The notes beneath the pieces are model-generated. The model saw only the letters and a program-made list of their open reading frames with translations, did not search any database and was not told where the DNA came from. The position numbers were made by a program, and so were the translations under genes. A stretch of DNA of 64,000 nucleotides, from assembly GCA_000004985.1 (NCBI GenBank), contig GG738928.1, one strand, 5' to 3'. This document shows, one piece after another, positions 18,685-23,520 of this stretch. The stretch comes from Naegleria gruberi. Taxonomy: Eukaryota. Each line of letters opens with the position of its first letter. Positions within the stretch are counted from its first letter, which is position 1.

Positions 18685-19827
18685 ATGAAGGCGTTTTTAA
18701 AGAATTTTGCAAAGGCTATTGGAGGTTCCGATAAAGTTTCTTCTGAAAGTCAAGTCTTGTTGGAGAATATTCCATTCGAAGCCAAAATGAGGGAACAATA
18801 TCCTTGTAATGTGCTTGGTTATAGTACTTTTTACAATGATCAAGGACTACCAAATGATAGAACTCAACAATGGTGTCCATATCAAGTTATTGGACCACCT
18901 ACTTGTTATCCAAATTTAGGAGATAATGTGACTGCTTGGTGTCCTGCTGGAATGGCTGGTCCTGAACACATTATTGTAGAATATGAAAAGCCAGTTATTG
19001 CAAAGGAAGTTCATGTTTATGAAACCTTAGGACCTGGATCAACTTGTAAAATATCTTGTAAAGTATATAAGGGAGAGGAAGATAAATCAGAAGAATGGAT
19101 TGTCTTGTGGGAAGATAAAACAGTCGTGACAAATGTTTCGGCTACAGCAGCAAGAGATTTTTCTCCTCCAATCTCTCAACTAGTTCTTACCAAGGTTATA
19201 AGGGTAGACTTGAATATTACATCCACTTGGTCTGAAATTGATACAATTAAATTAGTAGGAAATTATGATGTGGATCATGTGGAAATTACAGAACTTGGAT
19301 CAGAATATAGACAATTGTTCACTCAAGCTCAGGAAGATGGGCAAAACTACTCCGATGTCACCATTTCTTTGGTTAATTCTGACAAGCAAATTAATGCACA
19401 CAAGGGAATTATTGCTAGTAGATCGCCATATTTACTCAAACAATTGACTGTTCAAGATGGTCCACAGATTCATTTAGGGCTTGATGTCTCTTTTGAAAGT
19501 TTAAAACAAGCCATCTCATTCTTGTATTGTAATCATTGTGCTGTTTCTCTTGATACACTTTTTGAGCTCTATGCAATTGCCAACATTTTTGATTGTGATG
19601 ATTTGAAAGAGTTTTGTGAACATAATTTGACACTCTTGCTTACTCCAAGTAATCTTCAGGAAGTTTATGATAAGGCAGTTCAAAACCATCATACATCATT
19701 AACAGATACCATCCTTAGAGTTATGTTCAAGCACTACGATAGAATACAACAACTTGGTTTACAACAAATTCTCACAGAGAAAGATGCTCTCACCCTTAAA
19801 AATATGAGACGATCAAATAGTAAATAA
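18685..19827 (+). CDS. BTB/POZ domain protein with N-terminal beta-sandwich (APC10/DOC- or PHR-like) domain
   Basis: The C-terminal BTB is 'VTISLVNSDKQINAHKGIIASRSPYLLKQL...LYAIANIFDCDDLKEFCEHNL'. The N-terminal domain is Cys/Trp-rich and globular. Confidence 0.6.
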   Translation: MKAFLKNFAKAIGGSDKVSSESQVLLENIPFEAKMREQYPCNVLGYSTFYNDQGLPNDRTQQWCPYQVIGPPTCYPNLGDNVTAWCPAGMAGPEHIIVEYEKPVIAKEVHVYETLGPGSTCKISCKVYKGEEDKSEEWIVLWEDKTVVTNVSATAARDFSPPISQLVLTKVIRVDLNITSTWSEIDTIKLVGNYDVDHVEITELGSEYRQLFTQAQEDGQNYSDVTISLVNSDKQINAHKGIIASRSPYLLKQLTVQDGPQIHLGLDVSFESLKQAISFLYCNHCAVSLDTLFELYAIANIFDCDDLKEFCEHNLTLLLTPSNLQEVYDKAVQNHHTSLTDTILRVMFKHYDRIQQLGLQQILTEKDALTLKNMRRSNSK

Positions 19828-19903
19828 TTTACGCATTCCTCTAATACTCTAAATTATTTAGTGAATTATTCAAAGTCTAAAATTTCATTTATTTGGGAAA
19901 ATC

Positions 19904-20467
19904 CTAAATTCCTAAAATAACTCTCTTCTTTGCCGTAAATTCCTCCTCAGTCAAAATTCCAGAATCTCTCAACGAGGCCAATTTTTCCAAATCCTGAATA
20001 ATTGAATCATTCTTTGATTTTCCAATTTGACTTGTTGAAGTTGATGAGCTAGTGTTATTCGATTTTTCATTTACAATAATTTTTTGATAATTAGTTTCAC
20101 CAGTTTTCACATCATATTCGAAACCAGTTTTTTGTGGAGATTTCTTGAAATTCTTTGAATTTTCAGAGATTGAAGTAGCATGAGATGAATGTTTAGATGT
20201 AATGTAAGCTTGACCAAAGTTTCCATCAAATCTTTGTTTGAAACGAAGTCCTTGAGAGCCATCAAACAAGATAAAAGTTCCATCACTTGTCAAGTTGAAA
20301 GGAAATTTCTTTTCCAGTCTAACTTCTGGCATACAAAGTTTAATTTCAATTTTGTGTTCACGAGAAATATTTGGAAATGGTATGTTTAGAATAACGTGTT
20401 CATTCATATCGGAATCTCCACTTTCGAATACTTTTTCAAATTCAGCATCCGACGTGACTGTTCTCAC
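19904..20467 (-). CDS. Protein with C-terminal SHOCT-like motif
   Basis: The C-terminus 'IQDLEKLASLRDSGILTEEEFTAKKRVILGI' matches the SHOCT consensus (L..L..L...G.IT.EEF...K..LL). The N-terminal ~120 aa look like a globular domain. Confidence 0.5.
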   Translation of the reverse strand: MRTVTSDAEFEKVFESGDSDMNEHVILNIPFPNISREHKIEIKLCMPEVRLEKKFPFNLTSDGTFILFDGSQGLRFKQRFDGNFGQAYITSKHSSHATSISENSKNFKKSPQKTGFEYDVKTGETNYQKIIVNEKSNNTSSSTSTSQIGKSKNDSIIQDLEKLASLRDSGILTEEEFTAKKRVILGI

Positions 20468-20754
20468 ATGAATAGTCTAAAGAATGATGAATTATTGAAA
20501 AGTTAATGAATAATAATATACATACTGTTGGAAACTCTTCGGAAGTTGGAAGTTTATAAATGAAAAGGTTTAGTTCAGTTGTTATTGACATTTTTTTTGG
20601 TTTTGAAATTGATAAGAAATCAGTGATTACCGATTTGTACATTTTCTAATGAGTACTTGTCAGTGAAATAAATGTCATGCCTCCATTACACAGTTGCTCT
20701 ACCTTGATACAGTGATTTAGTGCCAATATTAATAAATTCGAAAATTGAATGCAA

Positions 20755-20828
20755 GCGCCGTTAGATCAGTTGGTTAGATCGTCAGCTTTACACGCTGAAG
20801 GTCAAGGGTTCGACTCCCTTACGGCGTA
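20755..20828 (+). tRNA. tRNA-Val (TAC)
   Basis: GCGCCGTTAGATCAGTTGGTTAGATCGTCAGCTTTACACGCTGAAGGTCAAGGGTTCGACTCCCTTACGGCGTA. The anticodon arm TCAGC/TTTACAC/GCTGA gives anticodon TAC, and the T-arm is AAGGG/TTCGACT/CCCTT. Confidence 0.85.
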
Positions 20829-21897: not shown

Positions 21898-21969
21898 GGG
21901 ACCATGGTCTAGTGGTATGATTCTCGCTTTGGGTGCGAGAGGCCGTGGGTTCGATTCCCACTGGTCCCC
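21898..21969 (+). tRNA. tRNA-Pro (TGG)
   Basis: GGGACCATGGTCTAGTGGTATGATTCTCGCTTTGGGTGCGAGAGGCCGTGGGTTCGATTCCCACTGGTCCCC. The anticodon loop is TTTGGGT, and the sequence matches the canonical eukaryotic tRNA-Pro. Confidence 0.9.
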
Positions 21970-22560: not shown

Positions 22561-23520
22561 ATGTATACTCTCTTAAAAAATCAATTTGTGGCATCAGATC
22601 AATATTTGAAAAAAATGCCACTAACCAAGCTTGACGTAGTGATTGAATTATTTCAAACTGAAGTTTCGTTTATTCAGCATGTGCAACAGGCAGCTATGTC
22701 GACCGATAAATCACGCTACAATCAATTCTACAATTCACATTTACAAAAGTTTCTAAATTTCGTCTCACCAAACTCTCAATTAGTTTCCCAATATTCTAAA
22801 ATAATCAATTCCGATAATTATCAATTTTTATTAGAAGAATTCACTTTAAATTTTATCAAAGTACTAAACAGTGACGATTTCCTCTCTACTTACATTGTTC
22901 TTTGTCAATTCGAATTGAGAAAGGAATCGGCATGTTATTTTTGTGGACGAATGCCAAGATATAAATTGATATTTGATGAATTTTTGAAAAGGGAATCAGA
23001 TGAGCAGATCAAGATTAGAATCATTAATCCAATTTTGGAAAAATTAAAGGAAATTTGTACAATAATCAATTTAAACTTTGGAATTATTTCAATGTTGAAT
23101 GTGAAGGAAACCAAGTTTTTTCAAATTGAAACTCTGATTTATGAATTGGTGATTTTGGATGTGAATTTCAATATTAACAAGTACATTTTTGGGAAGTTGA
23201 TTTACAAGAAGAGAAAATTAGAACATGGAATGATTTATATTCCCATTAATAGTAATCAACTCATCTTGTTGACAGTAAATGGTCCAATTGACCAGCTTTC
23301 TTCAATTCATTCAGCAGTTGATTTTGGAAATGAAGGAAAAATTGTATATTCCAAATATTCAATTTACAAAATTATTGACCTAATGAAATGTGAAATTTCC
23401 TACAAAGAGGAAGGAATTGAAATCAAGACAAAATCAAAAACAATTACAATGAACTTGAATTTATTCGATTCCAAGATTAATATTTGGAAATTGATGTGTT
23501 TGAGGAGATTTAAATTGTAA
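22561..23520 (+). CDS. Hypothetical Asn/Lys-rich protein, possible DH-PH (RhoGEF-like) fold; upstream exons possible
   Basis: 'KLDVVIELFQTEVSFIQHVQQ' resembles the start of a Dbl-homology domain. The assignment is weak. Confidence 0.3.
   Translation: MYTLLKNQFVASDQYLKKMPLTKLDVVIELFQTEVSFIQHVQQAAMSTDKSRYNQFYNSHLQKFLNFVSPNSQLVSQYSKIINSDNYQFLLEEFTLNFIKVLNSDDFLSTYIVLCQFELRKESACYFCGRMPRYKLIFDEFLKRESDEQIKIRIINPILEKLKEICTIINLNFGIISMLNVKETKFFQIETLIYELVILDVNFNINKYIFGKLIYKKRKLEHGMIYIPINSNQLILLTVNGPIDQLSSIHSAVDFGNEGKIVYSKYSIYKIIDLMKCEISYKEEGIEIKTKSKTITMNLNLFDSKINIWKLMCLRRFKL

Follow-up and report, generated by a model that had tools for sequence, protein, structure and literature searches.

The SHOCT domain was defined by Eberhardt, Bartholdson, Punta and Bateman in 2013 (PMC3581485). 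It is described there as a predominantly prokaryotic hairpin of two helices, 28 residues long, which follows an unrelated globular domain and a flexible linker, and for which roles in oligomerisation, nucleic-acid binding and localisation have been proposed. Its partners there include Band 7, bacterial PH, CorA and zinc ribbon domains, kinases, PLD-nuclease and others. The paper records SHOCT in 19 species of eukaryotes, among them trypanosomes, Dictyostelium and Naegleria gruberi, and contains a section entitled 'SHOCT domains in Naegleria gruberi' that counts 14 proteins, with a copy that is usually C-terminal; two N. gruberi proteins carry three copies and one (D2VS68) carries eight. A second class of related modules is formed by the SHOCT-like bi-helical domains (DUF1707 and others) analysed by Ravi et al. 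2024 (PMC11237479). The present analysis concerns a minus-strand gene with a C-terminal SHOCT hairpin in a stretch of 64,000 nucleotides of N. gruberi contig GG738928.1 (assembly GCA_000004985.1), hereafter the window. Its product, D2W2T9, shares with the SHOCT proteins of 2013 the order of globular domain, flexible linker and hairpin. With the SHOCT-like proteins it shares a short bi-helical module, placed N- or C-terminally on soluble intracellular domains in that class and given a predicted role in localisation. The differences are equally clear: the partner in D2W2T9 is a β-sandwich without a Pfam model, unlike the partners listed above, and its SHOCT copy is canonical and eukaryotic, whereas the SHOCT-like domains are divergent bacterial variants associated with PSP/Toastrack envelope-stress systems, a context that D2W2T9 lacks. 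A sequence-only reading of the locus had regarded SHOCT in a eukaryotic gene as unusual. This view does not hold, as the domain has been documented in N. gruberi since 2013, the inclusion of D2W2T9 itself in the count of 14 being unconfirmed.

D2W2T9 is the soluble, 212-residue product of a nuclear gene and consists of three parts: an N-terminal β-sandwich (BS) domain, a linker and the SHOCT hairpin. What is new here is the β-sandwich, which represents an uncatalogued family with a near-obligate SHOCT pairing in Heterolobosea; no description of either was found in the literature and libraries searched. A search for homologues of the N-terminal domain had been proposed by the sequence-only reading. 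A profile of this domain without SHOCT, seeded by D2W2T9, was run against 1.84 billion representative proteins and retrieved 15 of them, with independent relatives recovered at E values from 1e-14 to 3e-4. The named proteins in this search all belong to Heterolobosea (N. gruberi, Willaertia magna and Acrasis kona), and no prokaryotic relative was found among the 1.84 billion representatives. A word-indexed search with an alignment of 23 BS copies returned two proteins, both already known, and did not broaden the taxonomic range; named family members overall come from Naegleria, Willaertia or Acrasis only. Nearly all BS proteins also carry SHOCT in Pfam or local hidden Markov model (HMM) scans, in combinations that range from one BS plus one SHOCT up to three BS plus at least eight SHOCT. 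On this sequence evidence the β-sandwich domain seems confined to one lineage and closely tied to SHOCT. The earlier suggestion of an 'undescribed eukaryotic use' of the motif therefore survives, weakly, in the pairing with a lineage-restricted β-sandwich, and falls for SHOCT as such, which was already known from Naegleria.

Within this family, D2W2T9 is the minimal 1+1 form with conserved linker motifs of its own, and a second N. gruberi paralogue, D2V671, is likewise a 212-residue protein with one BS and one SHOCT. The multi-SHOCT heterolobosean paralogues, among which D2VS68 is also counted, are larger. N. gruberi D2W1V1, N. fowleri A0A6A5CG58, A. kona A0AAW2YY45 and W. magna KAL9642511 also combine BS with SHOCT, with low-complexity linkers between them, and the large members of the family (600-1070 residues) hold two or three BS domains and three to at least eight SHOCT repeats. 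One apparent BS-only protein of 99 residues (P0023; Logan SRR22388222 contig, L003 3001..3640) is a shortened gene call. After codon 99 its gene has an intron (GTAAC...TTTTAG), which is followed by a Thr/Asn-rich linker and a divergent SHOCT-like end, ...EFDKLKVLHAKGLVTDDELEQKRLQLGL*, with a score of 20.5 bits after intron correction, below the Pfam cutoff. The BS-only status of P0023 thus stems from a gene caller blind to introns. In these collections, domain pairings can be masked wherever genes on eukaryotic contigs are called in prokaryotic style. In two further proteins no SHOCT is recorded: D2VDI7 (107 residues) is BS-only as annotated, and W. magna P0014 (KAL9642838, 745 residues) has four BS copies and no SHOCT by Pfam or the local profile. 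Residues ~440-470 of P0014 (…LIKIQKLEDQRILSKEEADIERKSVIG…) have, by eye, the look of a degenerate SHOCT.

The C-terminal tail had been read as SHOCT from the letters alone, and profile searches bear this out. Pfam SHOCT (PF09851) matches D2W2T9 with 38.4 bits (E = 9.4e-10, model positions 3-28 of 28) against a gathering threshold of 27 bits, and the isolated tail of 37 residues reaches 43.5 bits. The precomputed Pfam annotation of D2W2T9 is also PF09851, and the orthologues bear the UniProt name 'SHOCT domain-containing protein'. The match stops two residues short of the stop codon, with the β-sandwich upstream. AlphaFold2 (AF2) predicts helices at residues 177-193 and 199-210 with a short loop between them, at a predicted local distance difference test (pLDDT) score of ~83. 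In the alignment of five orthologues, the hairpin region is free of gaps, and G195, E199, E201, L185, L188, L191, I196, L197, F202 and L210 are invariant; the loop Gly, the Glu and the hydrophobic positions that characterise SHOCT according to PMC3581485 are all present. Columns without any variation account for 20 of 29 positions (69%) in the hairpin; the share falls to 44% for the β-sandwich and to 32% across the linker, and SHOCT is the most conserved part of D2W2T9 among the five orthologues. A score below threshold, or a generic amphipathic helix in place of a true SHOCT domain, had been named as the outcome that would overturn the assignment. A domain of merely 28 residues that is helical invites such a suspicion, yet a score 11 bits over the Pfam cutoff with E = 9e-10, a conserved Gly and Glu, an indel-free hairpin and top conservation across orthologues make a generic helix next to impossible. 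A six-frame scan with a small SHOCT profile found no other SHOCT-like segment in the 64-kb window, and a PDB sequence search with the SHOCT tail found no solved structure containing a SHOCT sequence.

The globular N-terminal domain that had been postulated upstream of SHOCT takes the form of a compact β-sandwich. On the five-orthologue alignment, AF2 yields a confident domain from residue 1 to ~117 with eight β-strands; for residues 1-120 with the 23-copy family alignment, the mean pLDDT is 90.0, the predicted template modelling score (pTM) is 0.82 and five of five models agree. The family alignment displays the signature IPASEExPF ... FNLTxxGxxI ... KQrxDDnFG. No Pfam or NCBIfam model matches the domain, the 23 copies have no consistent Pfam match among them, and a profile search found no relatives among PDB sequences. 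Foldseek against the PDB gave zero matches at E <= 0.001 and generic fold matches only. The generic eight-stranded β-sandwiches compared, namely the extracellular domains of PepT1/2, the luminal domain of HGSNAT, CBM41/CBM26, TssJ, transthyretin-like and C2 domains, share just 3-17% sequence identity with it. Membership in any of these families, C2, transthyretin-like and carbohydrate-binding-module domains included, is not supported, as no specific relationship in sequence or structure emerged, and no calcium-, sugar- or ligand-binding signature is identifiable in the domain. A PH-like N-terminal domain (bPH, PF03703/PF14470) was also considered, since bPH plus SHOCT is a known bacterial architecture, present in P0006; it was rejected for the lack of a Pfam bPH match and of a PH fold among the structural matches.

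The linker that joins the two modules has pLDDT values of 31-49 in the AF2 model, and Ser, Thr, Asn and Gln make up 49% of its residues. Although otherwise of low complexity, it holds two short conserved motifs. ISENSKNFK (general form ISxNxKNFK) is shared by the five orthologues, by additional close orthologue sequences and by A. kona P0011. GFEYDVKTGETNY follows the family pattern GF[EVI][YVI][DNH]x[KIE..][TS]G[EQR]... and takes the form GF[VI]VDPxTGxK[KR]Y in distant single-BS relatives; it is present in the orthologues except that of W. magna, and also in P0011, P0015, P0016, P0021 and P0022/P0024. In appearance the two resemble short linear binding motifs or else one small β-hairpin, and no known motif was matched. 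The idea that GFxxDxxTGxxxY is a partial WW-like hairpin was rejected, there being no Pfam WW match at E <= 10.

The identity, gene model and architecture of D2W2T9 are held with high confidence (Table 1). The protein had been described as 187 residues long. The corresponding minus-strand open reading frame (ORF), 19904..20467, and its translation ending in ...IQDLEKLASLRDSGILTEEEFTAKKRVILGI do exist, but they represent only a part of exon 2 of a two-exon gene whose spliced product has 212 residues: the ORF begins at a GTG in the ORF list, and the true ATG lies upstream at 20591 on the same strand. The spliced product is identical to an annotated N. gruberi protein (100% identity over 100% of its length), XP_002669354.1, which is NAEGRDRAFT_75710 and UniProt D2W2T9. 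Neither these identifiers nor those of the orthologues are mentioned in the searchable literature. Hydrophobic segments are absent from D2W2T9 (the highest value in a 19-residue Kyte-Doolittle window is 0.24), and nothing therefore points to a signal peptide or a membrane span.

Table 1. Parts of the D2W2T9 gene and protein, with positions in the 64,000-nucleotide window
Feature	Position	Strand	Description	Basis
Exon 1	20526..20591	-	Codons 1-22, MSITTELNLFIYKLPTSEEFPT; first β-strand of the N-terminal domain	Splice model
Intron	20477..20525	-	Spliceosomal, 49 nt, GTATGT...TTTAG, phase 0	
Exon 2	19904..20476	-	Codons 23-212 and TAG stop; includes ORF 19904..20467	
N-terminal β-sandwich (BS) domain	20192..20591 (intron inside span)	-	Residues 1-117, eight β-strands	
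Linker	20015..20191	-	Residues 118-176; disordered, Ser/Thr/Asn/Gln-rich	
Linker motif ISENSKNFK	20144..20170	-	Residues 125-133; conserved	
Linker motif GFEYDVKTGETNY	20087..20125	-	Residues 140-152; conserved	
Predicted helix-turn-helix hairpin	19913..20014	-	Residues 177-210	AF2
SHOCT domain PF09851	19913..19990	-	Residues 185-210	38.4 bits vs gathering cutoff 27

In its genomic setting, the SHOCT gene (stop codon 19904..19906, minus strand) converges with a BTB gene (18685..19827, plus strand), and the ~76 bp between the two stop codons leave scant space for 3' untranslated regions or terminators. On the opposite strand, 164 bp upstream of the ATG, lies a tRNA-Val (TAC) gene (20755..20828, plus strand). 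A tRNA-Pro (TGG) gene follows at 21898..21969, and the 64-kb window holds six tRNA genes altogether. For an ORF of 319 residues at 22561..23520 (plus strand), Pfam gave no match at E <= 0.001.

The gene is old and has been vertically inherited. Full-length homologues of D2W2T9 exist in N. lovaniensis (57% identity), in W. magna (51%) and in two further assemblies; the N. fowleri orthologue is FDP41_006316 (A0A6A5BJ06), and a more distant BS+SHOCT relative is found in Acrasis. The first intron is shared by N. gruberi, N. lovaniensis (133 nt) and W. magna (49 nt), where it agrees in aligned position and in phase; the W. magna orthologue has two extra introns. In N. lovaniensis the orthologue likewise has the BTB and FAD-oxidase genes for neighbours, an additional WD40 gene lying in between. 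The GC content of the gene (0.33-0.35) blends into a window of ~34% throughout, without local anomaly, and its neighbours are typically eukaryotic (an FAD-linked oxidase, the BTB protein and cofilin/ADF). Horizontal transfer, as the sequence-only reading had raised it, or bacterial contamination of the assembly might be thought to explain a predominantly prokaryotic domain whose hairpin core agrees with presumed prokaryotic copies at 21-24 of 29 positions. Either is nonetheless extremely improbable as a recent event. A spliceosomal intron conserved in three species, orthologues in at least four heterolobosean species, microsynteny with N. lovaniensis, a place among eukaryotic genes and tRNAs, and ordinary GC content together exclude contamination or recent gene transfer; the N-terminal domain, moreover, had no prokaryotic relative in the search of 1.84 billion representatives, and no bacterial donor of the whole BS+SHOCT architecture was found in the data searched.

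The hairpin itself is of little help in tracing deeper ancestry. Over its core of 29 residues, D2W2T9 is identical to its own orthologues at 24/29 positions, to P0006-P0009, whose prokaryotic origin is inferred from architectures and one source name, at 21-24/29, and to several of its own paralogues at only 15-17/29. The core lies near the family consensus and carries no usable phylogenetic signal. With the core as close to presumed prokaryotic copies as to orthologues, a phylogeny, which the sequence-only reading had suggested, is uninformative for SHOCT, and an ancient origin in bacteria for the 28-residue module by itself is neither shown nor excluded; if the module did come from bacteria, it was acquired before the divergence of Naegleria and Willaertia. 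A phylogeny of the N-terminal domain was rejected, as there is no outgroup beyond the family. Within the syntenic block, the additional gene of N. lovaniensis (L001 8881..10252) encodes a WD40/PROPPIN-like protein of 387 residues between the SHOCT and BTB genes and has no counterpart in N. gruberi at 19828..19903; it was gained or lost inside an otherwise syntenic region.

The family has been detected at the protein level in N. fowleri. A0A6A5CG58 (P0032, 681 residues), which has several SHOCT copies and two BS domains, ranks as protein group 4 (23 peptides) in shotgun proteomics of N. fowleri extracellular vesicles (EVs), and it was also identified in an immunoreactive band of ~140 kDa. Of its listed peptides, one begins at residue 460, on the border of the first BS domain (463-555), and another at residue 538, within that domain. 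A0A6A5CG58 is an expressed and abundant member of the family. Conditioned medium contains another N. fowleri SHOCT protein, A0A6A5CCE5 (69 kDa), as one of its most abundant proteins; the peptides QQFNDTFG... and NGTFLFFG... of A0A6A5CCE5 appear to resemble the BS signature, a likeness drawn from the peptides only. The locus FDP41_007455/007456 is represented by two adjacent genes (436 and 681 residues) in one assembly and by a single product of 1144 residues (CAG4707696.1) in another, and P0034/P0035 share a 90% cluster with P0032. This suggests a split or merged gene model of the EV protein, and the ~140 kDa band is a better fit to the longer form.

As to function, the reading given most weight, at a probability of roughly 0.45, is that the SHOCT hairpin is the protein docking module of a cytosolic adaptor. 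The hairpin of D2W2T9 would dock onto another SHOCT or onto a conserved protein partner and position the β-sandwich at that site, where the β-sandwich would supply a specific binding surface; valency in the multi-repeat paralogues would depend on how many hairpins they carry. The surface residues of SHOCT, charged ones included, are conserved from prokaryotes to amoebae, which implies a partner common to all: SHOCT itself, a membrane surface or nucleic acid. Since the mean net charge of 35 family copies is acidic (-0.97, range -6 to +2) and the helices of the D2W2T9 hairpin have modest hydrophobic moments (0.27 and 0.24), protein contacts are the better fit, ahead of electrostatic attachment to nucleic acid or anionic lipid. 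Hairpin arrays with long disordered linkers, such as those of the large paralogues, are also typical of multivalent docking modules. Several points weigh against docking, however. The sole published test of SHOCT self-association (PMC3581485), in which a fusion of one bacterial SHOCT to rat Cd4d3+4 was analysed by size-exclusion chromatography, was negative, and the β-sandwich, with its generic fold matches only, offers no identifiable ligand site. Neither of the two proteome tables checked lists the N. fowleri orthologue A0A6A5BJ06, and EV preparations are rich in cytosolic proteins, so that presence in EVs says little on localisation. Finally, the prediction of Ravi et al. (PMC11237479), based on domain and gene neighbourhoods in bacteria, is that disparate domains are anchored at the inner membrane leaflet by SHOCT-like domains.

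That prediction leads directly to the possibility that SHOCT is itself a membrane-surface anchor, in which the hairpin on the cytosolic leaflet would keep the β-sandwich at the membrane or cortex and the β-sandwich might be a lipid- or glycan-binding module in its own right. The prominence of two N. fowleri SHOCT proteins in EV or secreted fractions, the examined member having no signal peptide, is consistent with such an anchor, as is the occurrence of membrane-associated β-sandwiches (C2 domains, pneumolysin domain 4 and TssJ) among the generic fold neighbours; set against the charge and hydrophobic moments of the hairpins, it is a possible but on balance unlikely role. Another proposal places the binding surface inside the family, with the β-sandwich as the receptor for SHOCT hairpins and the two forming a lineage-specific domain-peptide pair that builds multivalent networks. 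It overlaps with docking, and its probability is not to be added to that of the latter. BS almost never occurs without SHOCT, yet SHOCT is found in 63 other architectures, and the large members carry several copies of each module with long low-complexity linkers between them. The argument is one of co-occurrence purely, and SHOCT works without BS in all prokaryotes, so that BS cannot be the general SHOCT partner; a receptor role is decidedly improbable. Nucleic-acid binding through a helix-hairpin-helix-like (HhH) motif was raised in PMC3581485 on the grounds of a two-helix topology and of joint occurrence with zinc ribbons and HhH motifs. With family hairpins that are acidic on average, no Pfam HhH match in D2W2T9 and no nuclear or nucleic-acid context for this protein, nucleic-acid binding stands at long odds here, and docking to a protein remains the preferred role of the hairpin.

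The eukaryotic occurrence of SHOCT, from which interest in this locus arose, is of little import, as it has been known since 2013 and the gene is an ordinary one, and the coupling of BS with SHOCT is a modest, annotation-level result. SHOCT is nevertheless a widespread domain for which functions have so far been proposed or predicted, and here, in proteins found at high abundance among the vesicle and secreted fractions of N. fowleri, a pathogen, it is joined to a compact, confidently folded β-sandwich specific to the lineage. As a small protein of the 1+1 form, D2W2T9 would be a handy construct for probing what SHOCT binds. A further, speculative and quite improbable extension is that BS is an uncatalogued, Heterolobosea-restricted domain functionally bound to SHOCT, as receptor or obligate co-module, and that the family forms multivalent scaffolds associated with the cortex or with vesicles in Naegleria. 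If this were true, the BS+SHOCT family, some of whose members are among the most abundant EV proteins of N. fowleri, would provide an experimental handle on the function of SHOCT.
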